From: a virus
Taxonomy: Duplodnaviria; Heunggongvirae; Uroviricota; Caudoviricetes
IMG/VR virus record: IMGVR_UViG_3300043568_002650
Location: 512 to 64,511 of that record
DNA: 64,000 nucleotides
Strand: one strand, 5' to 3'
Part shown: piece by piece, positions 12,371-24,278 of the stretch
Layout of the letters: the number at the start of each line of letters is the position of its first letter
Numbering within the stretch: position 1 is the stretch's first letter
Made by a program: the position numbers and the translations under genes
The notes under the pieces: model-generated
Databases searched by the model: none
Told to the model about the DNA's origin: nothing
Seen by the model: only the letters and a program-made list of their open reading frames with translations

Positions 12371-12801
12371 TGGAATTCTTAAACTCACACCCAATTAAAA
12401 AGTCAGACCTTGGATTTCATGGGAATCTATTCGGTGGAAAACTTCTTGCCTGGATTGATGCCTCCGCTGCTGGTTATGCAATGCAATTGTGTGATACTCC
12501 TCGTATGGTTACAGTAAGCATAGATAAGTGTAATTTTGAAAAACCTGCAAGGGAGGGTCAACTTATAAAAATCTATGGTTTTCCGCAAGCCATCGGTAAT
12601 AGCTCAGTTAACCTGTATATGGAAGCTAGAGCGCATAGCGTGTACACAGGCAAGCAGGCTATTGTGTTAAAAACACATATCCGGTTTGTACATATTGATG
12701 AGGATGGAAATCCTATTCCAATTGGTGAAAAAGGTAGAACCCGAATCCAACGATTAATTGAATCTGAATATGCGACGAGCGATGTTGATCTTACGAAGTA
12801 G
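12370..12801 (+). CDS. acyl-CoA thioesterase (hotdog fold)
   Basis: HGNLFGGKLLAWIDASA...VTVSID..NFEKP...FVHIDEDGNP. Confidence 0.9.
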   Translation: MEFLNSHPIKKSDLGFHGNLFGGKLLAWIDASAAGYAMQLCDTPRMVTVSIDKCNFEKPAREGQLIKIYGFPQAIGNSSVNLYMEARAHSVYTGKQAIVLKTHIRFVHIDEDGNPIPIGEKGRTRIQRLIESEYATSDVDLTK

Positions 12802-13177
12802 AGCAGACTTTCCTCAAAAGATTGAGGAGATGCAAGTAATGTATCCATCTAAGGCAGAAGCAATGATGGAAGTAGACCATGCGATTGACTACTTGCATAA
12901 AGTCAGAATATACCGACAGTATACTGAGTCTGATGACATGTTTCATTATCAAGTAGTACTTCACATGCAACTTAAGAACTACTTAGAAAATGTGCCAGAC
13001 TGGAAGATAGAACCTGAAGTGAAACCTTCCTTCTTTTCAAAAGCCTTTCATTTAATAACTACATGGCATGTACAAGTGTTAGTATGGATGGTTAAAAACT
13101 TTCCTAAACTCTTTGCTAAACTACGAAAAAGAGTACTGGTAAAACATGCTGAGTTAAAAAAGAAGAATTTAATTTAA
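12758..13177 (+). CDS. hypothetical protein
   Basis: ORF; start uncertain. Confidence 0.6.
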   Translation: MNLNMRRAMLILRSRADFPQKIEEMQVMYPSKAEAMMEVDHAIDYLHKVRIYRQYTESDDMFHYQVVLHMQLKNYLENVPDWKIEPEVKPSFFSKAFHLITTWHVQVLVWMVKNFPKLFAKLRKRVLVKHAELKKKNLI

Positions 13178-13227
13178 AACTTACTTTAAAAAGAGTATTA
13201 TAATTAAAACCTTTTAAATTTAACCAA

Positions 13228-13470
13228 ATGGCATTACGCACTTACATCATCGGTACCGAGAATGTTGGACTAACAACTCACAGAGAAGCAGCTGACTCTA
13301 ATCTTCTTAAAATGAAGGCAAAAAGCGTTGAACACGTACTTCAAACACTTAAAGAAGATTACGATTGGGGCGAATACGAAAAGGGAGGAACCTTCTTCGA
13401 CAAATGGTATTTTCCAAAGGATCAAGTAATAGTTTGCATTGACACACTAGCAAATCTTGATGAATTGTAA
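13228..13470 (+). CDS. hypothetical protein
   Basis: own TTTAAA-N20-TATAAT promoter at 13173-13204. Confidence 0.7.
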   Translation: MALRTYIIGTENVGLTTHREAADSNLLKMKAKSVEHVLQTLKEDYDWGEYEKGGTFFDKWYFPKDQVIVCIDTLANLDEL

Positions 13471-13548
13471 AATAAATTTTTCAACAATTGAAACTTTTTA
13501 TATTTTTGCAGTATAAATAATACAACAAAATAACTATTGATACTTTCA

Positions 13549-13632
13549 ATGAAACAATTAACAAATATCTCAATCCTTAGAACGGCCCTTCTGATAGAAG
13601 CAGGCGAGGGAAGAGTACGGTTAATAAGTTGA
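13549..13632 (+). CDS. putative leader peptide 1 (27 aa, MKQLTNISILRTALLIEAGEGRVRLIS)
   Basis: lies between TATAAATA (13512) and terminator 13654-13684. Confidence 0.55.
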   Translation: MKQLTNISILRTALLIEAGEGRVRLIS

Positions 13633-13653
13633 GTCAAAAATATAAGAATATTT

Positions 13654-13684
13654 AAACCTCAACCCAAAAAGTTGAGGTTTTTTT
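13654..13684 (+). terminator. intrinsic terminator/attenuator
   Basis: AAACCTCAAC/GTTGAGGTTT stem followed by U tract. Confidence 0.85.
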
Positions 13685-13724
13685 GTTTTAATGTGATTGT
13701 AAAAAGAGTATTATAACATTATAT

Positions 13725-13797
13725 CGCGGAGTAGAGAAGTTGGTATCTCGCAAGGCTCATAACCTTGAGGTCGTTCGTTCGAGTCGGACCTCCGCTA
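13725..13797 (+). tRNA. trnM: tRNA-Met(CAT), initiator-like
   Basis: cloverleaf, loop CTCATAA, C1:U72 mismatch. Confidence 0.9.
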
Positions 13798-13811
13798 CTA
13801 AAAAAGAAAAC

Positions 13812-13820
13812 GTTCTTTGA
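13812..13820 (+). promoter_or_regulatory. boxA-like antitermination site (also at 14444-14460, 16709-16725, 19740-19749)
   Basis: GTTCTTTGA(C/A)A repeated four times near starts of RNA blocks. Confidence 0.6.
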
Positions 13821-13827
13821 AAAAATT

Positions 13828-14096
13828 AAGAGTGCTGAGATTACAGGACGAATGTGAAAAACGGAACTTGTTCCAACCACACGGCAGAAGATGCCCTTAA
13901 TAATATTGCAAAAAGTTCGATAGATCTATATTAAGACCCAGGGCACAAATCCGTGTGAGGGAGGCTGAGTAGAAGAAGAACCTGCTATAGAATAATGTAC
14001 GTACACGTACTAATATATAAAGTCCTGAATGTGAGTATGGCAAGGGAGTTGATAATACCGGTTAAAAACAACTTTATTCTATAGATAGCAATACTT
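13828..14096 (+). ncRNA. candidate structured ncRNA (~270 nt, pseudoknotted)
   Basis: CAGGAC/GTCCTG, CACACGG/CCGTGTG, GCCCT/AGGGC, 11-bp CTATAGAATAA/TTATTCTATAG; no ORF. Confidence 0.55.
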
Positions 14097-14168
14097 GTTC
14101 CCATCGTCTAACGGTTAGGACGTTAGGTTTTCATCCTAGAAATCGGAGTTCGATTCTCCGTGGGAATA
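14097..14168 (+). tRNA. trnE: tRNA-Glu(TTC)
   Basis: cloverleaf, loop TTTTCAT. Confidence 0.93.
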
Positions 14169-14174
14169 CAAAAT

Positions 14175-14315
14175 GGTTCCGAATGGATATACTCATAAAC
14201 GTAATGAGTCACTACCGAACGGTGGGTATTAGAAAAATTAAGGCAGTATCTGACGGGGTACTAGTGCTAAGATTGGATGAATATCATGCAGGTTCGACCC
14301 CTGCCGGAATCACCA
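14175..14315 (+). ncRNA. oversized tRNA-like RNA with encoded CCA
   Basis: acceptor GGTTCCG/CGGAATC-A-CCA and T arm GCAGGTTCGACCCCTGC; non-tRNA interior. Confidence 0.65.
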
Positions 14316-14321
14316 AATTAT

Positions 14322-14394
14322 TGTGGAGTAGAGAAGTTGGTATCTCGTTGGGCTCATAACCCAAAGATCGGCAGTTCGAGTCTGTCCTCCGCTA
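14322..14394 (+). tRNA. trnfM: tRNA-fMet(CAT)
   Basis: anticodon stem with GGG/CCC, 1:72 mismatch. Confidence 0.92.
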
Positions 14395-14470
14395 CAACCA
14401 GTATCTGGTAGATAATTAATTTTATCTAACAGATCTAACAAATGTTCTTTGACATATTGGATCTAAAAAC

Positions 14471-14544
14471 GGTTCCGTAGCTCAGCCGGATAGAGCAACG
14501 CCCTTCTAAGGCGAAGGTCGCACGTTCGAATCGTGCCGGGATCA
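14471..14544 (+). tRNA. trnR: tRNA-Arg(TCT)
   Basis: cloverleaf, loop CTTCTAA. Confidence 0.95.
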
Positions 14545-14603
14545 CGGGAGTGTATGCAGTAGAGTTCAGCTTATGAGCAGATGTAACACGCACTTAAAGA
14601 TGG

Positions 14604-14756
14604 GGTTACAAGGTGATAGGCCGTTTGTTCAGCTTTGGCGATAAAAGCTGTCGATTTAAGTCACAAGTTTATCGTAAAAACATATGTTGACCGTGATGTT
14701 ATTGGGTCTGATCACCCGTTTCACGTTAACGGCGAAACCCTCCCAAGGGAGTAGCC
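14604..14756 (+). ncRNA. candidate structured spacer ncRNA
   Basis: GGTTAC/GTAGCC closing stem; GCCGTT/AACGGC, CAGCTTT/AAAGCTG, CTCCC/GGGAG. Confidence 0.4.
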
Positions 14757-14761
14757 AACTT

Positions 14762-14835
14762 GCAGGTATAGCTCAATTGGCTAGAGCGTCGCCCTTCCAA
14801 GGCGAGGGTTGTCGGTTCGAGTCCGACTACCTGCT
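14762..14835 (+). tRNA. trnG: tRNA-Gly(TCC)
   Basis: cloverleaf, loop CTTCCAA. Confidence 0.95.
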
Positions 14836-14840
14836 CTATT

Positions 14841-14915
14841 GGGTTGTTAGCTCAGATTGGCTAGAGCACTGCACTTGCACTGCAGGGGTCAAGGGTTCGA
14901 GTCCCTTACGATCCA
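14841..14915 (+). tRNA. trnA: tRNA-Ala(TGC)
   Basis: cloverleaf, G3:U70, loop CTTGCAC. Confidence 0.95.
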
Positions 14916-14975
14916 CAAAAAGCCTTAACGATTATTTGTACAGTAATCACCGACGGTTAGGCTGCCGTCTCATTT

Positions 14976-15128
14976 GGTTCTATAGCATAACGTGGGTAGC
15001 TCCCAGCAGTCGCGAGTGGGTAAATGATGATAGATTGTCAGTAACACTCCTTAATACTAGGATCGGAGTAAAAGGTTAGGGCATTCTATATGTAGTTTAC
15101 AAGGTGGGTTCGATTCCTACTAGAGCCA
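14976..15128 (+). ncRNA. oversized tRNA-like RNA
   Basis: acceptor GGTTCTA/TAGAGCC-A and T arm GTGGGTTCGATTCCTAC. Confidence 0.55.
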
Positions 15129-15288
15129 CAAAGTGTTGTTCCCTTGAGAAAGGAATATTTTTAGATGATACCTTACTATGCACCTAATCAGTGATTAGGT
15201 AAGGAGTGATAAGGCTGAACGTAACTTAATGCCAAACCATAGTTGAAAATGGTAGATAAAGACAACACAGAGGTTCTCAACCTCAACT

Positions 15289-15370
15289 GCACGAGTGGTG
15301 GAATTGGTAGTCACGCTGGTCTTAGGAACCAGTGCCGTAAGGTGTGAGGGTTCGAGTCCCTCCTTGTGTA
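15289..15370 (+). tRNA. trnL: tRNA-Leu(TAG)
   Basis: cloverleaf with variable arm, loop CTTAGGA. Confidence 0.93.
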
Positions 15371-15447
15371 CGATGTTGGGTAATTCCCAAATGAACTTAG
15401 GGCGGTATCGGGCTAGCCTAAGAGAGATCGACAAAAAGCCCGTCCAT

Positions 15448-15551
15448 AGTCAGGTGGCGGAACGGTAGACGCTAAAATAATGGGTGGATAGCGTGCCATT
15501 GGGGTAGAACCAAGAAAGTTACGCATACAGGTTCGAATCCTGTCCTGACTA
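15448..15551 (+). ncRNA. AGTCAGG-family tRNA-like RNA A (pseudoknot in place of anticodon arm)
   Basis: acceptor AGTCAGG/CCTGACT, Leu-like D arm, T arm; near-copy at 19572. Confidence 0.7.
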
Positions 15552-15717
15552 CAGGTAGCCCTCTGCCTAGCGCTGGGTATGGATCGAAGATGGGGATAGC
15601 CTCTTGAACGTTAGTTAGAATACTTCGGTATCCTTTAATCAATGCGCACTACTCCTTCCGAATCGTGTGTCGGCACAGTTTGTACGTTCTGGGGATAATC
15701 CAAAAACGTGCATTTTT

Positions 15718-15832
15718 AGTCAGGTGGTGGAATGGTAAAGCACCTGGTGAGCGGTAAATGGTAGGGAGTCATGACCTGAGAGTATACGTTAAGTCTTGCC
15801 ATGAGATGCAGGTTCGACCCCTGTCCTGACTA
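15718..15832 (+). ncRNA. AGTCAGG-family tRNA-like RNA C
   Basis: same acceptor, D and T arms; 115 nt, no canonical anticodon arm. Confidence 0.65.
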
Positions 15833-15894
15833 CGCAAAAAACACTGGGCTAAGTTTCCTTACCTCGCGAGAGACGGGTTTTATATGCCTAACAT

Positions 15895-16016
15895 AGTTAG
15901 GTGGTGAAATGGTAGACCGCCCCTTCTCATCAAAGGGGAGATGGAGTTCGAATCTCTGAAGTTGAGTAAAATCAACGAGTATAGTACTATTACAGGTTCG
16001 AATCCTGTCCTGACTA
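15895..16016 (+). ncRNA. AGTCAGG-family tRNA-like RNA D (CAT loop, multi-arm variable region)
   Basis: CCCCTT-CTCATCA-AAGGGG arm, second TTCGAAT loop, canonical T arm. Confidence 0.65.
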
Positions 16017-16177
16017 CAAACTTTTACTTGACTCCGATAGGATAGTAAAGCTCATTGGGAATTCGGAAATACCGTGAATGAGGGCGCAAGTAACGGAAAC
16101 TTGCAATGGCGGAGTGCCAAATACACTAGAAACGAGTCCTTGGGTGATCAATGGATGGTCTGAAATCTCCGCTAACT

Positions 16178-16251
16178 GGTCCTTTAACTCAGTCTGGTAG
16201 AGTGCCGCGCTCATAACGCGAGAGTCGTAGGTTCAAATCCTGCATGGACCA
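16178..16251 (+). tRNA. tRNA-Met/Ile2(CAT)
   Basis: cloverleaf, loop CTCATAA; elongator-like. Confidence 0.88.
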
Positions 16252-16382
16252 CTGGAAAATATTTTAAATAAAAATGAAAAAATATTTTACTTATTAAAAT
16301 AAAAGGTGTATATTAGCAACCTCAAACGATCAAATAGATCCAATACGTTAAAAATTAGAAATTGATAAGATAAATAAACACG

Positions 16383-16538
16383 ATGAAAAACATTAACAAC
16401 ATATTAAACACGTCATATCAGACTTTACCTAGTTCGCCGATGAGCTGGAGTTCGATCTGTGACTTTAATGTTGTGCGTTTAAATAACACGTTTATTGATC
16501 CTAAACAACACTTAAAAAATACTCGGGAATTGATGTAA
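16383..16538 (+). CDS. putative leader peptide 2 (51 aa, MKNINNILNTSYQ...)
   Basis: lies between ATAAATA (16370) and terminator 16564-16594. Confidence 0.55.
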   Translation: MKNINNILNTSYQTLPSSPMSWSSICDFNVVRLNNTFIDPKQHLKNTRELM

Positions 16539-16563
16539 ATCTTTAATTATATCAAACTAAAAT

Positions 16564-16594
16564 AAACCCGAGTCCAAAAGATTCGGGTTTTTTT
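16564..16594 (+). terminator. intrinsic terminator/attenuator
   Basis: AAACCCGAGTC/GATTCGGGTTT stem followed by U tract. Confidence 0.85.
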
Positions 16595-16602
16595 GTTTTA
16601 TT

Positions 16603-16675
16603 GCTTTCGTAGCTCAGTCGGTAGAGTGCCTCACTTGTAATGAGGATGTCATCGGTTCGAACCCGGTCGAAAGCT
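16603..16675 (+). tRNA. trnT: tRNA-Thr(TGT)
   Basis: cloverleaf, loop CTTGTAA. Confidence 0.95.
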
Positions 16676-16733
16676 CAAAAGATTGTTGAACTTCAATCTA
16701 AAAAAAATGTTCTTTGACATATTGGCTTTAAAT

Positions 16734-16804
16734 TTTCCCCTCGTCTAACGGCAGGACACGTGGTTTTGGTCCACGGAATCGAGGTTCGAATCCTTGGGGG
16801 AAAA
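16734..16804 (+). tRNA. trnQ: tRNA-Gln(TTG)
   Basis: cloverleaf, loop TTTTGGT. Confidence 0.93.
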
Positions 16805-16810
16805 CAATAA

Positions 16811-16896
16811 GGAAGTTTAATTAAGCTGGCGCTTAACCTAGTCTTGAAAACTAGTGGTACTGAAATATGTATGGGGATCGATACCTCAGGCTTCCT
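16811..16896 (+). tRNA. trnS: tRNA-Ser(TGA)
   Basis: long variable arm, loop CTTGAAA. Confidence 0.88.
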
Positions 16897-16958
16897 CAAA
16901 AGCGATCCACTGTGCGCTATATAAAAAGTCTTGCTTCGGCATGCTACACAGTGGACAA

Positions 16959-17031
16959 CTAGGCATGGGAAAGTTGGTAATCCGCGTGGTTTGGGACCAC
17001 GAGACCGCAGGTTCGAGCCCTGCTGCTTAGA
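16959..17031 (+). tRNA. trnP: tRNA-Pro(TGG)
   Basis: cloverleaf, loop TTTGGGA. Confidence 0.93.
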
Positions 17032-17127
17032 CGATATGGCTCATTTAGAAGTATTTTATGGATCAAATACTAGTCTAAATGAGCCATAAGTAGAAACAAG
17101 ATGATCCACAAATAAAAAATTAAACTC

Positions 17128-17346
17128 ATGGAGACAACCGTAATTAAAAAAGAGCTTTATAAACAAAAGCCTATTGCAAAATTAAAATTCATCAGATTAG
17201 GAGTAGCTTATTATTCAGCCCCAATTGAACATGAAAGTAAAACAGTAGATATTGAATTTCAAGTTCCAATTACAGACATGGGAGATACTGATTTTTATCC
17301 ATTAATGGATGCAAAATTATTAAACAGATACATCACAAACCTTTAA
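17128..17346 (+). CDS. hypothetical protein inside tRNA array
   Basis: 72 aa ORF with A-rich leader. Confidence 0.7.
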   Translation: METTVIKKELYKQKPIAKLKFIRLGVAYYSAPIEHESKTVDIEFQVPITDMGDTDFYPLMDAKLLNRYITNL

Positions 17347-17399
17347 AAAAATCCAAAGATTATGGAAAGTGACAAGAGCGACAAGAGTCGCAAACGAGA

Positions 17400-17474
17400 G
17401 ATCTCGTAGCTCAGTTGGTTTAGAGCACCTCACTTTTAATGAGGGAGTCGTGGGTTCGAGCCCCACCGGGATCA
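17400..17474 (+). tRNA. trnK: tRNA-Lys(TTT)
   Basis: cloverleaf, loop CTTTTAA. Confidence 0.95.
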
Positions 17475-17478
17475 CACA

Positions 17479-17600
17479 TGGGGAAGAATGCAAAACAATT
17501 CGCTCTTTTGCCGTTCTTCAGCAATGATAGTAATTAAAGAGTTTCATCGCAATTAAACAGTAAATTTAATGATTTGGCCCTAAGAAGCCCTTCCCCACCA
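17479..17600 (+). ncRNA. candidate CCA-ending structured RNA upstream of TROVE gene
   Basis: TGGGGAAG/CTTCCCCA stem then CCA; AATGCAAAA shared with the 19759 RNA. Confidence 0.5.
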
Positions 17601-17667
17601 ATTCAATAAACACAAATTTGTATCAATAAACTAGTCCTGTTTATTGTAACAAAAATGAGTTTATTAT

Positions 17668-17740
17668 GCACCTTTAGCTCAGCTGGTAGAGCGCTTGTTT
17701 TACATGCAAGATGTCACAGGTTCGATCCCTGTAGGGTGTA
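17668..17740 (+). tRNA. trnV: tRNA-Val(TAC)
   Basis: cloverleaf, loop TTTACAT. Confidence 0.95.
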
Positions 17741-17839
17741 CAAAACCTTTTTCGAAAAAAGTTTAAGCAAAAAGTGAAACTATCAGTTTTTATATTGTAT
17801 AGTATTAATCACAAAACAAAAAATTAATTCCTTGTACTA

Positions 17840-19468
17840 ATGACAAAGTTTAGAAACGACAAACTTCGTTCGACGCTAGCTGGAATGCAGCCTCAAGCGA
17901 ATCTGGTAGAAGCGGTGAAAATCCCAAAACCAGACACTAAGAATCGTCAAGGACATGCAGCTTATTCACAAGATAAGTGGCTTAGACTCTTGACGATGTT
18001 AAACACACTAAAGCTAGAAAATCAATTCTATCGTTCTGAGACAGAAACGATGAGGGAGTTGAAAGGACTAGTCGATGAGTGTGCAAAAGAAGACGCTTAC
18101 TTCGTAGCTCAATCTATCGTGTATTCACGATGTGTTGGTGAAGGAATGAGATCAATTAACCACCTTGCGGCAAGCTACCTAGCTCCACACTGTGCGGGTC
18201 AAGAATGGGCAAAACGTTTCTATTCCCTATGGAACAAACGTACTCAATCCGGAGGAACATTATTTCGTCCAGATGATATGGCTGAAATCGTTGCATGCTT
18301 CTCAGCATTAAACGGGACTAAAGTCACAAATGCAATGAAAAAAGGATTTGCTGATGCTCTTGAAAACTTAGATGCTTATGCATTACTAAAATACAAGAGC
18401 TCTCTAGTTGACGTAATCAACTTAGTTCACCCAAATCCATCAGCGTCTAGTGCAGTAGCAGAGGTAAATGGAGAAAAAGTTCCAGTTCTTTCGGCTATCA
18501 TGAAAGGCTTATCAGTATCTGCGGATACTTGGGAAGTTGCTCAGTCTGATGCAGGTCAAGAAGTTGCGAAAGCAGTTAAAGAAGGTAAAATCGACAAGTC
18601 AGAAGCTGAAACTATCCTAAAGGAAGCTAAGGCTGAAAACTGGGATGCTCTTTTAACTGACGGTAAACTTGGAATCCTAGCTGCTCTTCGAAATATTAGA
18701 AATGTATTGAAGACAGTTAACAAAGGAGACACGGTTACTAAATTGACTGCTCTTTTATCTAGTCCAGATGCAATCCGAAAAGGAAAGATTATGCCATACC
18801 AAATTGACCTAGCTCACGAGGTAACGATCTCAGAATTCTCTGATTCTAATGCTAGAGCGATTGCACAAGCATTACTTAAAGGATATGAAGCAGCTGTGCC
18901 AAACCTTTCAGAGATGCTTCCTGGTAAGACTCTAGTAATGGTGGATTTCTCTGGATCAATGGGTACACCAATGACGGATGGCGCAAGAAGCGGAAAACGT
19001 TATACTAGTCGATGCATGGATAAAGCGGCTTTGATCGCAGCAACCATTGCAAAGGCAACAAATGGAGATGTAATCCGATTTGGTTCAAGTGCTGAATACG
19101 TAAAATGGAACGCTAACTCTGATGTATTCTCTATTGCTAGCGCAATGAAGAGAGATATGGGAGGAACTAACTTATCAGCAGCATGGGCAGTAGCTCAAAT
19201 GTCTGGACGTCAGTACGACCGAGTGTTCATCTTATCTGATAATGAGTGTAACCGTGGAAACTCTTACAAAGCATACGAGACATACACAAAAGCATGCGGA
19301 AGCCCATACGTTTACTCGGTGGATCTAGCAGCTTACGGAACGACTCAACTTGCTGGAGATAAAGTTCGTTTCTACTATGGATACGGATACTCAATGTTCG
19401 ATGATATCGCAAAAAGCGAGTTCAATCCAAATTATCACTTAGAGAAAGTTCGCAAGATCAAAATCTAA
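17840..19468 (+). CDS. rsr: TROVE/vWA RNA-binding protein (Ro60/Rsr family)
   Basis: helical TROVE-like region (LKYKSSLVDVINLVHP, ALRNIRN, IMPYQI) and vWA MIDAS VDFSGSM...GGTNL...FILSDNE. Confidence 0.85.
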   Translation: MTKFRNDKLRSTLAGMQPQANLVEAVKIPKPDTKNRQGHAAYSQDKWLRLLTMLNTLKLENQFYRSETETMRELKGLVDECAKEDAYFVAQSIVYSRCVGEGMRSINHLAASYLAPHCAGQEWAKRFYSLWNKRTQSGGTLFRPDDMAEIVACFSALNGTKVTNAMKKGFADALENLDAYALLKYKSSLVDVINLVHPNPSASSAVAEVNGEKVPVLSAIMKGLSVSADTWEVAQSDAGQEVAKAVKEGKIDKSEAETILKEAKAENWDALLTDGKLGILAALRNIRNVLKTVNKGDTVTKLTALLSSPDAIRKGKIMPYQIDLAHEVTISEFSDSNARAIAQALLKGYEAAVPNLSEMLPGKTLVMVDFSGSMGTPMTDGARSGKRYTSRCMDKAALIAATIAKATNGDVIRFGSSAEYVKWNANSDVFSIASAMKRDMGGTNLSAAWAVAQMSGRQYDRVFILSDNECNRGNSYKAYETYTKACGSPYVYSVDLAAYGTTQLAGDKVRFYYGYGYSMFDDIAKSEFNPNYHLEKVRKIKI

Positions 19469-19480
19469 ATAAAAAATAAG

Positions 19481-19564
19481 ATTGCTGGGTGGCAAGTTAC
19501 AGAGTTACTTCTTTATATCTGAAACATAAAACCAAAATACTCTCGACAGTATTCCCCCAGCAAT
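19481..19564 (+). ncRNA. Y-RNA-like RNA 1 (minimal)
   Basis: 9-bp ATTGCTGGG/CCCAGCAAT stem, interrupted helix, TTACTTC motif, 13 nt after TROVE stop. Confidence 0.6.
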
Positions 19565-19571
19565 TTTTTAT

Positions 19572-19675
19572 AGTCAGGTGGCGGAATGGTAGACGCTACA
19601 TTAATGGGTGGATAGTGTGCCATTGGGGAAGAACCATAAAAGTTACACATATGGGTTCGATTCCTGTCCTGACTA
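19572..19675 (+). ncRNA. AGTCAGG-family tRNA-like RNA B
   Basis: near-copy of 15448-15551 with compensatory GCGT/ACGC to GTGT/ACAC change. Confidence 0.7.
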
Positions 19676-19696
19676 CAAAAAAATATTAAGAATAAT

Positions 19697-19728
19697 TTTA
19701 AACGTAAAAGGATTCTTAGTATTATAAT
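19697..19728 (+). promoter_or_regulatory. middle-class promoter TTTAA(A/T)-N19-20-TATAAT (also 13173, 13687, 59434, 60679)
   Basis: five + strand copies with AGTATTATA(A/G) core and near-constant spacing. Confidence 0.6.
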
Positions 19729-19758
19729 CAAGTAAACAAGTTCTTTGAAAAAAATTAA

Positions 19759-19889
19759 TTATCGGGTAGTAATGCAAAAGGTTACTTCTTAGCTCAGCGG
19801 TTGAGCAATTTTCTTAAACAAAATAGGCCGCGGGTTCAATTCCCGCAGAAGCGCGAAAGCGTTACACCTTTGCAACTTTCTCCTGATAA
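19759..19889 (+). ncRNA. Y-RNA-like RNA 2 with embedded tRNA-like cloverleaf
   Basis: TTATCGGG/CCTGATAA stem, bulged TGCAAAAGGT/ACCTTTGCA helix, D arm, CTTAAAC loop, T arm. Confidence 0.7.
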
Positions 19890-19895
19890 ACTTAT

Positions 19896-20034
19896 TAAAG
19901 GTAATAGTAATCTAAACCGTTACTTCGTCTGTTAAACGAGAGGTCGTTGGTTCGAATCCAACATGGGGAGTAATCTTCATTAGCTCAGCTGGCTAGAGCG
20001 CTAAAATCTCGGTTGGAAACTTTCTTTACCTTTA
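19896..20034 (+). ncRNA. Y-RNA-like RNA 3 with circularly permuted tRNA-Asn(GTT)
   Basis: TAAAGGTAA/TTACCTTTA stem; order: anticodon arm, T arm, ATGGGGA-GTAA-TCTTCAT closed acceptor, D arm. Confidence 0.75.
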
Positions 20035-20040
20035 TCATTT

Positions 20041-20245
20041 GGAAGATATTCCCTCAGTTATGAGCTAATAGCAGTTTATTCTAGTTTCCTATAAAACTAG
20101 AGGTGCTGTTGACTGGGGCCAGAATCAGTTAATGCCTTTTTAGAGAGCGAAGAGTTTGGAAGCGAAGCTCTACCTTTGATCAGATGCTAGCATGAAGATC
20201 AAGCATAAGAGGCCGGAAGATGGAATGTAAGCCGGCCTCTTTTTT
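20041..20245 (+). ncRNA. candidate structured ncRNA ending in a GC hairpin plus U tract
   Basis: TCTAGTTT/AAACTAGA, TTGACTG/CAGTTAA, TTGATC/GATCAA, AAGAGGCCGG/CCGGCCTCTT. Confidence 0.4.
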
Positions 20246-20259
20246 AAAATCAATTTATT

Positions 20260-20338
20260 GGAGTGTTGAGCATTTGGCTGGCTCGCTTGACTGTAAATCA
20301 AGTCCTAACGGCATGGGGGTTCGAATCCCTTCACTCCA
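20260..20338 (+). tRNA. trnY: tRNA-Tyr(GTA)
   Basis: variable arm, loop CTGTAAA. Confidence 0.92.
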
Positions 20339-20341
20339 ACG

Positions 20342-20478
20342 AAAGATAGTGGCCTTCTCTGTCGATGCTGTCGACAAGCTAAGCAGATCAAAGAATTTCA
20401 TCACCCTTTGCTGAGGCCTCATTAAAACTCAGGAAGCAATTAAGATTGGAGCGAGACGGGTACTCCATCACTATCTTT
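20342..20478 (+). ncRNA. candidate structured spacer ncRNA
   Basis: perfect 10-bp AAAGATAGTG/CACTATCTTT closing stem with internal hairpins. Confidence 0.55.
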
Positions 20479-20487
20479 TATTTTTTC

Positions 20488-20561
20488 GGTCTGTCAGTCC
20501 AGTTGGAGTGGACGCCTGCCTGTCACGTAGGAGATCACGGGTTCGAGTCCCGTACGGACCG
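20488..20561 (+). tRNA. trnD: tRNA-Asp(GTC)
   Basis: cloverleaf, loop CTGTCAC. Confidence 0.95.
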
Positions 20562-20614
20562 CCGGGAATATTTTGTACCTTCATTGAGATAAATAATCAA
20601 AATGAAGGTACACT

Positions 20615-21271
20615 ATGGCAAGAAAGGAACATCAATATCATTACATTTACAAGACTACTTGTAATGTTACTGGAAGATATTACATCGGGATGCACTCGAC
20701 TTCTAACTTAGAAGATAGATATATTGGAAGCGGGACTAGATTATGGAAGTCACTCAATAAACATGGAAAGGAGAATCATTCAATTGAAATATTAGAATGG
20801 TATTCAGATAGAAATTCATTGAAACTAAGAGAAAAAGAATTAGTTAATGAGGAAACTCTTAATGATCCAATGTGTATGAATTTAATGATTGGTGGAGGAG
20901 GTGGAAAAATATCAGACGAGCAACAAAGGTCTAGATCAATCACTGGAGGTCGTGCATTTGCTAATAAATTAAAAAGTGATCCTGAGTTATTAAAACACGT
21001 TCAAATGATTGCATCAAATAACTTGAAAAAATTACATGAGAAAGGAGATTTCAATTATAATACTTTTCAAGGAAAGACGCATTCCGATGAGACTAAAAAT
21101 AAAATTGGAGCAGCAAATTCAATTAAGCAGAGTGGATATAATAATTCACAATATGGAACTTGTTGGATAACTAATGAAATTGATTCTAAGAAAATTCATA
21201 AGGGCGATCTTATCCCAAGTGGATGGAGATTAGGTCGAAAAGCCCTCAAAATAAGAAGTCGTAACTCCTAG
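20615..21271 (+). CDS. GIY-YIG homing endonuclease with NUMOD3-like motif (Seg-like)
   Basis: YIYKTTCNVTGRYYIGMHST...YIGSG; GKTHSDETKNKIG. Confidence 0.88.
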   Translation: MARKEHQYHYIYKTTCNVTGRYYIGMHSTSNLEDRYIGSGTRLWKSLNKHGKENHSIEILEWYSDRNSLKLREKELVNEETLNDPMCMNLMIGGGGGKISDEQQRSRSITGGRAFANKLKSDPELLKHVQMIASNNLKKLHEKGDFNYNTFQGKTHSDETKNKIGAANSIKQSGYNNSQYGTCWITNEIDSKKIHKGDLIPSGWRLGRKALKIRSRNS

Positions 21272-21301
21272 TAAAAACCTAGGCTAATTTCTTGTTTATC
21301 T

Positions 21302-21377
21302 GGACTCATAGCTCAATTGGTAGAGCATCGCACTGTTAATGCGAGGGTTGTAGGATCGTGCCCTGCTGAGTCCGCCA
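21302..21377 (+). tRNA. trnN: tRNA-Asn(GTT)
   Basis: cloverleaf, encoded CCA, atypical T loop ATCGTGC. Confidence 0.9.
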
Positions 21378-21389
21378 AAAATTGAATAT

Positions 21390-21463
21390 ATCCATGTATT
21401 TCAGCTGGTTAGAATATCACCCTGATAAGGTGAAGGTCGAAGGTTCAAGTCCTTCCATGGATA
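21390..21463 (+). tRNA. trnI: tRNA-Ile(GAT)
   Basis: cloverleaf, loop CTGATAA. Confidence 0.93.
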
Positions 21464-21519
21464 CAAAGGGGAGTAACTTGCGTGGGTGCCCCAAGTGCTG
21501 CAGCATTACCACGCTCTAC

Positions 21520-21611
21520 GGAAATGTGTCAGAGTGGTTTATTGTACTTCCCTGCTAAGGAAGTGGTCGCTGCAAAGAGGCCCGTTGGTTCGAATCCAGC
21601 CATTTCCGCCA
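21520..21611 (+). tRNA. trnS: tRNA-Ser(GCT)
   Basis: long variable arm, loop CTGCTAA, encoded CCA. Confidence 0.95.
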
Positions 21612-21614
21612 AAC

Positions 21615-21684
21615 ATCGTGACTTAGTGGAAAAGAACGAGCTCTCATAAGGCACGTCAAGTGAGTTCGAACCTCACGCACGATA
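21615..21684 (+). tRNA. degenerate tRNA(CAT)
   Basis: good T arm and CTCATAA loop; weak D and anticodon stems. Confidence 0.55.
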
Positions 21685-21702
21685 CTAAAAAATAAAAAAA
21701 TT

Positions 21703-21858
21703 ATGAAAGTAATAATGACAGGAAATTTCGAATCATCTAAATTGATGCTTCGAGGAAGAGACCCATCGCCCAAAGGACGAAAGGGATGGCGTAGTCGGGC
21801 CGCACAAGTCTGCATCAAGTTTACGAATAAATTGACGAAGGCCAAGTCAATGGTGTAA
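21703..21858 (+). CDS. small basic hypothetical protein (51 aa)
   Basis: A-rich leader; below the ORF-track size cutoff. Confidence 0.45.
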   Translation: MKVIMTGNFESSKLMLRGRDPSPKGRKGWRSRAAQVCIKFTNKLTKAKSMV

Positions 21859-21891
21859 ATCGACTCTCCCCACTTACGGAGTGGGGTTTAT

Positions 21892-21966
21892 GGTGGTTGT
21901 AGCTCAGTTGGTTAGAGCGCTGGTTTGTGGTACCAGAGGTGGTGGGTTCGAGACCCATCTTCCACC
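21892..21966 (+). tRNA. trnH: tRNA-His(GTG)
   Basis: G-1:C73, loop TTGTGGT. Confidence 0.9.
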
Positions 21967-21979
21967 CAAAAAACAAAAT

Positions 21980-22062
21980 GCCTCGATGGTGGAATTGGTA
22001 GTCACGTCGTGTTTAAGCCGCGATATCTTTAAGGTGTGAGGGTTCGACTCCCTCTCGAGGTA
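21980..22062 (+). tRNA. trnL: tRNA-Leu(TAA)
   Basis: variable arm, loop TTTAAGC. Confidence 0.9.
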
Positions 22063-22064
22063 CT

Positions 22065-22183
22065 AAAGGAATGGTAAGTGAAGCTGTTAGGTACGATAAG
22101 GTTTAATCACCCAAAGCATTAAAAAAAGGGTTTGGAGTAAACGTACAAACCAGAAACCCCGAGAGACCCGAGGCCATTCCTTT
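22065..22183 (+). ncRNA. candidate structured spacer ncRNA
   Basis: perfect 10-bp AAAGGAATGG/CCATTCCTTT closing stem. Confidence 0.5.
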
Positions 22184-22188
22184 TCTTT

Positions 22189-22262
22189 ACACCTTTAGCT
22201 CAGCTGGATAGAGTCTCTGATTACGGATCAGATGGTCGGGAGTTCGAATCTCTCAAGGTGTA
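22189..22262 (+). tRNA. trnR: tRNA-Arg(ACG)
   Basis: cloverleaf, loop TTACGGA. Confidence 0.93.
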
Positions 22263-22308
22263 CTCTTATAGAATCCGATGTCGGTCCCGATCTAGGTCGG
22301 GCAAATAC

Positions 22309-22381
22309 ACAGACATAGCTCAGTTGGTAGAGCACTGGTCTCCAAAACCAGGTGTCGGGAGTTCGAGCCTCTCTGTCTGTG
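22309..22381 (+). tRNA. trnW: tRNA-Trp(CCA)
   Basis: cloverleaf, loop CTCCAAA. Confidence 0.95.
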
Positions 22382-22388
22382 CTCAATT

Positions 22389-22464
22389 GGTGAAGTAGCA
22401 AAGCTGGTCTATGCAGCGGACTGAAAATCCGATGATGGCGGTTCGACTCCGTCCTTCACCACCA
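22389..22464 (+). tRNA. trnF: tRNA-Phe(GAA)
   Basis: cloverleaf, loop CTGAAAA, encoded CCA. Confidence 0.93.
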
Positions 22465-22482
22465 AAAGCCAATATGTTTCAT

Positions 22483-22552
22483 GGTCAGGCTAGTCGCGGC
22501 GGCTAGTTGGTCTGCAAAACCACCGGAGTGAGTTCGACTCTCACCCTGACCT
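22483..22552 (+). tRNA. trnC: tRNA-Cys(GCA)
   Basis: loop CTGCAAA, U73; atypical D arm. Confidence 0.88.
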
Positions 22553-22573
22553 CTTTTTAATATGTCTCCTCAG

Positions 22574-22580
22574 ATAAATA
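22574..22580 (+). promoter_or_regulatory. T4-like late promoter (G/T)ATAAATA (also 106, 3317, 5272, 5712, 13513, 16370, 20589, 28586; - strand near 32225, 34140, 36418, 38320, 39310, 42958, 63323)
   Basis: recurrent ATAAATA 10-40 nt before starts; resembles the T4 late promoter TATAAATA. Confidence 0.7.
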
Positions 22581-22598
22581 ATAAAAAGTCTTATTGGG

Positions 22599-24278
22599 TT
22601 GGCACCTTTTCATATATTTGCAAAGAAAAATGCAAAGAAACTTTCAAATTTTAAAGTAGGAGTTAGCCTACGAATAAAGATAAAATTAGCAATTGCTGCA
22701 ATTCTAATGATTGCATATATGTGCGTTAAAATTTCAATTCTTGCTGGATTGCGTGAGTCTACTGAGGTTACTCGATGGATAGAATTTGTTGGTGTTATTT
22801 CATATATTCTAATATCAATCCTATTAATTAAAGACTTTATCAATTTAACTAAACATTCAGTATCTAAGGAATCTATTGATAAGATGAGTGAGTTAGAAAA
22901 TTTCTTAGACTCTTCGTCAATTATATCTAAGGCTGATGCTAAAGGTAAAATTACTTATGTAAATGATAAATTCACTAAGGTTTCTGGTTACTCACTAGAA
23001 GAAGTGCTTGGAAAAGATCACTCTATTGTAAATTCAGGAGATCAACCTGATGGATATTGGGGAAAAATGTATGCTCAAGTTCTTACTGGAAAAATATGGA
23101 ATGATGTAGTCACAAATAGAGCAAAGGATGGCTCTCTATATTATGTAGATACTTATATCAAAGCTCAATTTAATCAGCATGGTAAGCTTGAAGGATTTAT
23201 GTCGATTCGCCAAGATGTTACTGAGCTACGAAGAAGGGAGGCTGAGATATCTAATAGAATGAATGCAATTAATAGATCAAATGCTGTTATTGAATTTGAC
23301 CTAGATGGAAATATTAAATTTGCAAACGATTTATTTTTAAAAACATTAGGCTACTCCTTAAATAGTGAAATTATAGGAAAACACCATAGTTTATTTGTTG
23401 AAGATGAAGTAATAGATACTGATGAATATCGAGACTTTTGGAAAACATTGGGCACTGGCAAATTCTTTATGGGAGAGATCACTCGAAAGAAGAAAGACGG
23501 ATCACTAATCTATCTTCAAGCAACATATAATCCTATTATAGGCACTGATGGAAAGCCATATCGAGTAATGAAAATCGCTACTGATATTACTCAAAGTTTT
23601 AATCAACAAGCTGAAATTGAAAAGAAGAATACTTATCTTGAGCATGCGGCAAAGATTCTACGGCATGATATGCATAGTGGAATCAATACCTATATGCCTC
23701 GAGGATTATCATCACTAGAACGAAGACTTTCAGATGACCAGATAAAAGAGCTTAAGATTGAAGCTCCACTAAAAATGATTAAAGAAGGATTACGACACAC
23801 TCAAAAAGTATATAAAGGAGTTTACGAATTTACTAATCTAGTAAAAAAGGATGTTGTTCTTACTCGCGAAGACTTAAATCTCAAAGACATACTCGAGGAC
23901 TATTTGTCCTCGACTGCATATAGACCGCAAGTAATAATCTCAGATCTAGGTCAGTCTAGTGTTAATGAAGCATTATTTTGTACTTCATTAGATAATCTTA
24001 TTCGTAATGGTTTAAAGTATAATGACAGTCCTAGTAAACTAGTTAAGATATACCGTATTGATGATATTCTTTATGTTGAAGACAATGGACGCGGTTTAAG
24101 CCAAGAAGATTTTAACCATCTTTCCAAACCATATACACGAAAAGAAGGACAGCAGGAATCAGGAACTGGTCTTGGGCTTAATATCTGTATTGCAATTCTT
24201 GAAGAACATGGATTCTCTATTACTTGTTCTAAACTTTCACAAGTTGGAACGCAAATGAAAATACGACTAAGCAGATAA
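22599..24278 (+). CDS. PAS/PAC sensor histidine kinase
   Basis: 2 TM helices, two PAS-PAC units, H box RHDMHSG, N box DNLIRNGLKY, G1 EDNGRG, G2 GTGLGL. Confidence 0.92.
   Translation: MAPFHIFAKKNAKKLSNFKVGVSLRIKIKLAIAAILMIAYMCVKISILAGLRESTEVTRWIEFVGVISYILISILLIKDFINLTKHSVSKESIDKMSELENFLDSSSIISKADAKGKITYVNDKFTKVSGYSLEEVLGKDHSIVNSGDQPDGYWGKMYAQVLTGKIWNDVVTNRAKDGSLYYVDTYIKAQFNQHGKLEGFMSIRQDVTELRRREAEISNRMNAINRSNAVIEFDLDGNIKFANDLFLKTLGYSLNSEIIGKHHSLFVEDEVIDTDEYRDFWKTLGTGKFFMGEITRKKKDGSLIYLQATYNPIIGTDGKPYRVMKIATDITQSFNQQAEIEKKNTYLEHAAKILRHDMHSGINTYMPRGLSSLERRLSDDQIKELKIEAPLKMIKEGLRHTQKVYKGVYEFTNLVKKDVVLTREDLNLKDILEDYLSSTAYRPQVIISDLGQSSVNEALFCTSLDNLIRNGLKYNDSPSKLVKIYRIDDILYVEDNGRGLSQEDFNHLSKPYTRKEGQQESGTGLGLNICIAILEEHGFSITCSKLSQVGTQMKIRLSR

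Follow-up and report, generated by a model that had tools for sequence, protein, structure and literature searches.

A probable leader-peptide attenuator upstream of a transfer RNA gene block in an uncultured Caudoviricetes phage

We analysed a 64,000-nucleotide (nt) stretch of DNA from a Caudoviricetes virus (hereafter the window; positions 512 to 64,511 of the IMG/VR record IMGVR_UViG_3300043568_002650), which is AT-rich and carries at least 25 transfer RNA (tRNA) genes together with a gene for a Ro60/TROVE protein. Our subject is a short plus-strand element, module 2, that precedes tRNA block 2 of this array, and we consider it probable that module 2 works as a ribosome-mediated (leader-peptide) transcription attenuator, with phage tRNA genes under its control. 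The element combines an open reading frame (ORF), an intrinsic terminator, an alternative antiterminator that excludes that terminator, a pairing segment that a ribosome at the stop codon could reach, and codons cognate to the tRNAs encoded downstream. An earlier note on this DNA, made from its sequence alone, had proposed a leader with an antiterminator and a terminator before block 2, and that proposal is now supported by co-variation over 14 families of modules, by stop-codon geometry, by a match between leader and tRNAs, and by a shift in this match in a more distant lineage of phages (P0006). That translation controls termination, which codons would be sensed, and how far read-through would extend are matters that we infer from these observations.

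The source of the window is a 128.5-kb virus record with an estimated completeness of 51%, and DNA matching the window was found in many lake-water metagenomes. In the GenBank phage collection we found tRNA-sized matches only, with neither a close relative nor an annotated homologue. A search with the Ro60 protein returned 33 related loci from uncultured phages, all of which (33/33) carry tRNA arrays in shuffled order. The homologues of module 2, which we refer to as the T2 family, comprise nine DNA homologues and ten distinct peptides (that of the window and nine variants), and a metagenome scan contributed one locus.

Components and alternative pairing of module 2

Leader 2, the ORF of module 2, spans 51 codons and a stop (16383–16538, with ATG at 16383 and TAA at 16536–16538), and is a genuine in-frame reading frame that we predict to be translated. 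Its ten distinct homologous peptides differ by in-frame indels only, all of them multiples of three; variable alignment columns are distributed 15/20/29 over codon positions 1/2/3, and synonymous changes occur at the conserved residues S11, L15, S17, S18, D27, V31, R32, K41, H43, and L44. Codons 10–19 (16410–16439) encode a putative regulatory run, TSYQTLPSSP, in which 8 of the 10 residues are Thr, Gln, Ser, or Pro. Near the end of the frame, codons 47–49 (ACT CGG G) contain segment A (ACUCGGG, 16521–16527), the candidate 5′ strand of the antiterminator, which is invariant in nine aligned homologues and in four loci of the P0006 lineage. Relative to the leader 2 stop, segment A occupies −15 to −9 nt (−16 to −8 in the duplex prediction), and Arg48 within it is CGG in every homologue, a codon that makes up 1.8% of the phage's Arg codons.

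A predicted hairpin of 9 base pairs, H1 (16530–16555), spans the stop codon with the two sense codons before it and is followed by an intrinsic terminator (16564–16599), in which the scanner found a stem of 11 pairs (16564–16590) with a U-rich tail (U7 at 16588–16594, then G and U4). The hairpin has an energy of −14.6 kcal/mol, with a core stem of 16567–16574 and 16580–16587 and a 3′ arm at 16580–16590. Its 5′ arm contains segment B (CCCGAGU, 16567–16573), which is perfectly complementary to segment A. The stem includes a wobble pair, G16572-U16582, that becomes G-C in two related loci (L039 and L071), where the 3′ arm is an exact repeat of ACTCGGG. The ORF, both complementary heptamers, and the wobble pair had all been reported in the earlier note and were verified here.

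The antiterminator uses the 5′ arm of the terminator, and the two structures are mutually exclusive. This arm pairs with the upstream 94 nt at −12.7 kcal/mol (z = −4.5); 200 dinucleotide shuffles yielded no pairing as good. Folding both conformers, a check suggested in the earlier note, bore the proposal out: for nascent RNA up to position 16585, the minimum-energy fold contains the ACUCGGG:CCCGAGU helix closed over H1, and this helix is found in the nascent-RNA minimum-energy fold of 9/9 variants. With the 3′ arm included, the balance shifts to the terminator conformer, which is better by 4.4 kcal/mol. The conformers of the trp attenuator have the same energetic order.

The spacer between stop codon and terminator is highly variable, yet 9/9 variants are predicted to fold a hairpin over the stop codon from different sequences (in L039 its arms are UUUAUGUA/UACAUAAA). 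H1 can coexist with the terminator, both are conserved, and its role may be to bring segments A and B together or to induce pausing. A further 5′ hairpin is predicted at about 16396–16474. We considered a tRNA-like reading of A, H1, and B with the following CCA, and rejected it because CCA is not conserved in L039. A target-site duplication as the origin of the repeat formed by A and the 3′ arm was also rejected, since the end of the inserted element would have to complement every different target.

Block 2 begins with tRNA-Thr(UGU) (16603–16676, 67.6 bits), which starts 12 nt past the terminator stem and thus leaves no room for a promoter of its own. In 11 of 13 homologous loci this tRNA is called 7–12 nt downstream of the terminator. 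In L036 and L037 (1650–1800), the same leader and terminator are followed by a different tRNA-like sequence with an unusual D-arm, for which ARAGORN made no call and in which we read a UGU anticodon loop by eye from the aligned stretch. The block continues with tRNA-Gln(UUG) (16734–16805), a tRNA-Ser(UGA)-like gene (16811–16895), and tRNA-Pro(UGG) (16959–17032), all on the plus strand. The identity of the Ser-like gene comes from alignment to homologues called by ARAGORN. The gene itself received no ARAGORN call, matched only a tRNA-Sec-like model in Rfam (42 bits), and has the T-loop AUCGAUA rather than UUCGAAU, which may leave it impaired in this phage.

Transcription of module 2 may begin near a promoter-like site found by a consensus scan, TTTACT-N17-TATATT (16286–16319, plus strand). 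This site includes a block, GTGTATATTAGCAA, that is conserved in 9/9 homologues between variable flanks, and its position is analogous to that of the TTG..TAnnTTTG-type sites before other leaders. The letters ATAAATA at 16370–16376, also mentioned in the earlier note, are as described but probably do not form a promoter. They lie 6 nt before the ATG in an A-rich stretch, ATAAATAAACACG (16370–16382), that is nearly constant in the nine homologues (A/C change at 2 of 13 positions) and is probably an initiation region without a Shine-Dalgarno sequence. Comparable ATATATAA(A) stretches occur 5–10 nt upstream of other leader ATGs, and a Shine-Dalgarno sequence was found in none of the phage's genes. 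Sites of the form TTG(AAAC)-N~19-TAnnTTTG(CA) precede leaders in the window (13488–13519) and in L004, L005, L012, L014, L061, L062, and L065. We take this to be the promoter form of Bacteroidota, and together with the absence of Shine-Dalgarno sequences it suggests that the phage host is a member of this phylum.

Recurrence of the architecture in related phages

We searched every locus for GC-rich hairpins that precede a T tail; flanking DNA of the related contigs was fetched later, and three more modules were detected once the hypothesis had been fixed. Terminator modules before tRNA blocks in the related phages fall into 14 sequence families, with a different stem in each and an upstream segment that changes alongside it. 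Their recurring parts are an ORF of 17–51 codons, often starting MKNxxNI, with its stop 17–34 nt upstream of the hairpin; a small AT-rich hairpin between ORF and terminator; and a copy of the terminator 3′ arm at the ORF end. Pairs of stem and upstream copy include GAUCGAAG/CUUCGAUC, CUAAGGGA/UCCCUUAG, UUCGAGGUUC/GAACCUCGAA, GUGUUCGGA/UCCGGACAC, GGCUUGAGC/GCUCAAGCC, and AGAUCCGGA/UCCGGAUC. The z-score of this pairing is below 0 in 25/25 tRNA-proximal terminators (11 independent families), while other hairpins of the same DNA centre on 0.

The position of the pairing segment relative to the stop codon is also maintained. Of the 17 modules in which it was measured, 15 have a segment A whose end falls between −13 and +12 nt relative to the stop codon, where a ribosome positioned at the stop would be expected to cover it; the footprint size used for this estimate, in module 2 as elsewhere, is general knowledge.

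The window itself holds a second such element, module 1 (13549–13680, plus strand), with a 27-codon leader (13549–13632), an anti-segment GUUGAG lying over the stop (13628–13633), and a terminator at 13654–13680. The earlier note had presented modules 1 and 2 as independent occurrences of the same architecture with unrelated sequence. Their stems do differ, but they share the tail TTTTTTTGTTTTA and a leader start of the form MK(N/Q)xxNI, and the two modules are diverged paralogues, so that the claim of independence did not hold. Rather than weakening the co-variation of stem and anti-segment as evidence, this paralogy strengthens it. Among the three closest phages (those of the window, L003, and L030), module 1 from promoter to terminator (13440–13695) is almost invariant, with 4 changes in about 255 nt in surroundings that are 88–94% identical, and the DNA downstream of its promoter-like AAGAGTATTATAA is entirely different among them. 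An extended tail, T(6-7)GTTTTA(T/A), is common to many terminators whatever their stem, both in the window (13654–13693 and 16564–16602) and in L003, L004, L009, L011, L030, and L032.

A third candidate in the window, an ORF at 21703–21858 with a hairpin at 21868–21886, was left out of the count, its T tail being weak and no anti-segment being clear. The ORF has 51 codons, starts MKVIMTG, and ends 9 nt before the hairpin (CCCCACT/AGTGGGG), which in turn lies 6 nt before tRNA-His; the element as a whole (21703–21892) may be a degenerate module or one of a different kind.

These structures could in principle belong to an RNA element that works without translation, for instance in RNA processing, in stabilizing the 3′ end of either the leader transcript or the RNase P-cleaved tRNA precursor, or by binding a protein or tRNA directly in the manner of a T-box. 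The mutual compatibility and conservation of H1 and the terminator would suit such an element, as would a hairpin 12 nt from the RNase P site in an array where tRNA-proximal hairpins are common. A search of 12500–23500 against Rfam at E <= 1, however, returned tRNAs and a sub-threshold Thr_leader match, with no other leader hits and no T-box; the Thr_leader match scored 24.7 bits against a gathering threshold of 55 and covered the terminator only (16543–16597). A translation-independent element also leaves unexplained the conserved reading frame with its in-frame indels and the tie between segment A and the stop codon in 15/17 modules, and the amino-acid match to the tRNAs described below makes sense only with translation. 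We therefore judge this explanation to be very improbable.

Leader composition and downstream tRNAs

Leader composition tracks the tRNAs encoded downstream. In module 2 the run TSYQTLPSSP precedes tRNAs for Thr, Gln, Ser, and Pro, and in module 1 the run EAGEGR precedes those for Glu, Arg, Gly, and Ala. Among the relatives, TTTSSSTSTSSC in L012 is followed by Ser, Ser, Thr, and Cys; ILPSSLRPSIRRS in L007 by Ser, Arg, Pro, Ile, Met, and Leu, a set that accounts for 16/18 residues; and SLPRPSRRSLLS in L014 by Ser, Ser, and Arg (then Pro and Leu). For the modules found after the hypothesis was fixed, 16/21 residues in L062 fall within the downstream set of Cys, Met, His, Ser, and Leu (binomial p = 4e-8), L065 has the run DKKWADEGK upstream of Trp, Glu, Asp, Lys, Lys, Arg, and Gly, and L061 has a 40-codon leader upstream of a block that starts Phe, Lys, Lys, Lys, Pro, Tyr. 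Swapping tRNA blocks between leaders gave p = 2e-5 to 2e-4 for 11 families, and a permutation p of about 2e-6 for 14 families, at the amino-acid and codon level alike.

Within module 2, the 8/10 residues of the run that belong to {T,Q,S,P} correspond to an empirical p of 0.005 (0.5% of equal-length pieces of this phage's own proteins contain a run as good). Across homologues, swaps at the variable positions 14, 16, and 19 of leader 2 are confined to T/S/Q/P, and at positions 10 and 24 such swaps are seen in 7/9 and 7/8 homologues, respectively.

The P0006 lineage (loci L071–L078), which is more distant, offers a natural experiment for this match. Here block 1 carries tRNA-Ser(UGA), placed after tRNA-Ala, and block 2, which lacks it, encodes Thr, Gln, Pro, (Lys), and Val. 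The best run of leader 2 is found three residues further on and reads QVTVPTT, with Ser reduced from 6 to 3 and Val and Thr increased, and leader 1 of the same lineage has gone from 1 to 3 UCN Ser codons (NSISRSAL). Both versions of leader 2 match their own tRNA set better than that of the other version.

An alternative is that leader 2 is an ordinary small gene, encoding a 51-residue protein with a function of its own and followed by a leaky terminator, in which case ACTCGGG would be no more than conserved Thr-Arg-Glu codons and the tRNAs would arise from unregulated read-through or from other promoters. Leader 2 does show purifying selection at the protein level, with residues 38–49 invariant despite 3 synonymous changes, and a possible internal promoter motif lies at 16709–16725. 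Small ORFs are common between phage tRNA genes, as in clusters of the T4 and T5 type, and this too counts for a small gene. What such a gene leaves unexplained is the copy of the 3′ arm that changes with the stem in 14 families, the rare CGG codon fixed in all homologues, and the tracking of tRNAs by leaders (p about 2e-6) together with its shift when tRNA-Ser moved. In addition, protein searches covering 1.84 billion representatives returned no homologue of the leader 2 peptide beyond the phage clade. On balance, we regard a small gene with its own function as unlikely.

Elsewhere in the tRNA array, the Ro60/TROVE protein gene (17840–19468) is kept in all 33 related loci, and directly downstream of it there is a weak YrlA-like (Y RNA) match at 19939–20002. 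Four segments (15448–15551, 15718–15832, 15895–16016, and 19572–19675) of 104–122 nt match the tRNA model at 30–36 bits with large insertions, and received no ARAGORN call.

Weighing the attenuation model and comparison with known systems

Several observations weigh against reading module 2 as an attenuator. The regulatory run precedes segment A by 82 nt, a greater distance than in textbook attenuators; enrichment over the whole leader 2 peptide is modest (15/50 residues against 9.7 expected, p = 0.047); and modules before Asp/Glu/Met blocks show no enrichment. No segment was seen to pair with A in the folds as a protector (1:2) hairpin would, and untranslated RNA would consequently read through, leaving the switch open. 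Both ACTCGGG and CCCGAGT are invariant in all homologues, so that no covariation is possible within the T2 family and the co-variation evidence comes from paralogous modules only. The flanks of more distant Ro-carrying clades (L044–L053) yielded no module, possibly because the detector requires a strong T tail. Contigs from two metatranscriptome libraries bridge leader, terminator, and tRNAs (X17, 16350–17112; X18, 16458–16626), and while these are compatible with read-through transcripts, they are a weak hint, as DNA carry-over is possible; such contigs give neither levels, strand, conditions, nor transcript ends, and the parts they leave uncovered are uninformative.

Two motifs could also drive tRNAs independently of the switch. 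One is GTTCTTTGACATATTGG, which lies 8 nt before tRNA-Gln in block 2 (16709–16725, plus strand) and has a second exact window copy at 14444–14460, before tRNA-Arg. Exact copies occur only 8–40 nt before tRNA genes, including after terminators in L004, L007, L012, L014, and L034, and in relatives it is often found downstream of the terminator and ahead of the block's first tRNA. The motif is possibly an internal promoter or a processing signal, and which of these roles it has would set the extent of each block under attenuator control. Only tRNA-Thr lies between terminator 2 and the motif; if it is a promoter, switch 2 would add to a basal supply and strictly gate tRNA-Thr alone. The other is the conserved, promoter-like AAGAGTATTATAA after the terminator of block 1 (13704–13716).

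A last point against pure codon sensing is that residues 38–49 of leader 2, IDPKQHLKNTRE, are invariant as protein and end 2–3 codons before the stop, since a codon-sensing leader has no need of such a tail. Synonymous variants occur in 3/12 of these codons and in 7/11 elsewhere, a difference that by our estimate is not significant, and an extra constraint at the RNA level was dropped as an explanation. The tail might instead act through the nascent peptide, as in arrest-type sensors such as TnaC or ErmCL, with IDPKQHLKNTRE holding the ribosome near the stop, thereby setting whether ACUCGGG is covered, and the codon composition of the run being secondary. The position of the twelve invariant residues, whose length would lie in the exit tunnel, would fit this, as would the rare CGG codon three codons before the stop and the fact that leaders of other modules are much shorter and do not have the IDPKQHLKNTRE tail. 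On the other hand, the last 2–3 residues and the tail length vary (LM, VLM, TFM, ILI, LHM), and paralogous leaders without the motif keep the switch, which would make arrest at most an add-on in module 2. As the principal mechanism it seems to us quite unlikely, while a contribution of this type from the invariant C-terminal peptide is possible.

Having weighed these points, we favour attenuation, with the block 2 tRNAs probably made when ribosomes read the matching leader codons slowly. The proposed sequence of events follows the general leader-peptide attenuation model (PMC1183508). Transcription would start near the promoter-like site at 16286–16314, and the 51-codon leader would be translated co-transcriptionally. 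An unhindered ribosome would reach the stop at 16536, where it would cover ACUCGGG (16521–16527) and melt H1; CCCGAGU would then pair with its own 3′ arm, and the polymerase would terminate at the U-tract, 12 nt before tRNA-Thr(UGU). If the ribosome were delayed, most plausibly at the Thr/Gln/Ser/Pro run of codons 10–19 when the matching tRNAs are scarce, ACUCGGG would stay free and capture the emerging CCCGAGU. No terminator would then form, and transcription would read through into tRNA-Thr and probably tRNA-Gln, tRNA-Ser, and tRNA-Pro. As the phage tRNAs accumulate, the stall would be relieved and the switch would shut, which amounts to codon-specific negative feedback.

More tentatively, every tRNA block of these phages might be an autonomous codon-specific feedback loop in which the leader serves as a test message for just those tRNAs that follow it. 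Such loops would be induced when host tRNAs of the set concerned are scarce or destroyed during infection, for example by anticodon nucleases, and would act as an inducible counter-measure in place of a constitutive supply of tRNA. In module 2, IDPKQHLKNTRE and the CGG codon would additionally time the ribosome over the antiterminator. We hold this broader version to be a conjecture with the odds against it.

Phage tRNA genes are usually viewed as constitutive helpers of codon usage, or else as spares for use when host defences cleave tRNAs. Full-text literature searches and one survey of attenuation turned up no report of tRNA genes controlled by leader-peptide attenuation. If the proposal is correct, classical attenuation has here been turned onto tRNA genes, giving a direct read-out of decoding capacity for specific codons and a self-limiting supply. 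It would also provide an annotation rule, by which small 'hypothetical' ORFs before tRNA blocks are leaders, as well as compact multi-input parts that sense tRNA availability. The correspondence of leaders with tRNAs could moreover help to work out what odd tRNA genes do and how far transcription units reach in uncultured phages.

Among known systems, module 2 most resembles the amino-acid attenuators of enterobacteria, which include trpL, hisL, leuL, and pheL as well as multivalent examples such as thrL (Thr and Ile) and the ilvGMEDA leader (Ile, Val, and Leu). Shared features are a short translated leader (here predicted) with regulatory codons for several amino acids and a terminator 5′ arm that pairs alternatively with a segment at the leader end, where a ribosome at the stop codon covers it. 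In contrast to these attenuators, module 2 is phage-borne and would regulate tRNA genes rather than biosynthetic enzymes, so that decoding capacity would be what is sensed and the loop would close on tRNA. Other differences are its default of read-through, given that no protector or pause (1:2) hairpin was found, the 82 nt between run and antiterminator, the conserved C-terminal peptide, and the lack of sequence or Rfam similarity. The pheST operon of E. coli, which encodes phenylalanyl-tRNA synthetase, is controlled by leader-peptide attenuation (pheM leader) that senses one charged tRNA. It is thus a case in which attenuation governs a gene of the translation apparatus, although its target is the protein gene of a synthetase and a single amino acid is sensed, with neither a tRNA block nor a phage involved. 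T-box riboswitches likewise report tRNA status through a choice between terminator and antiterminator, but they bind uncharged tRNA directly and without an ORF, whereas module 2 lacks a T-box motif and has a conserved reading frame.

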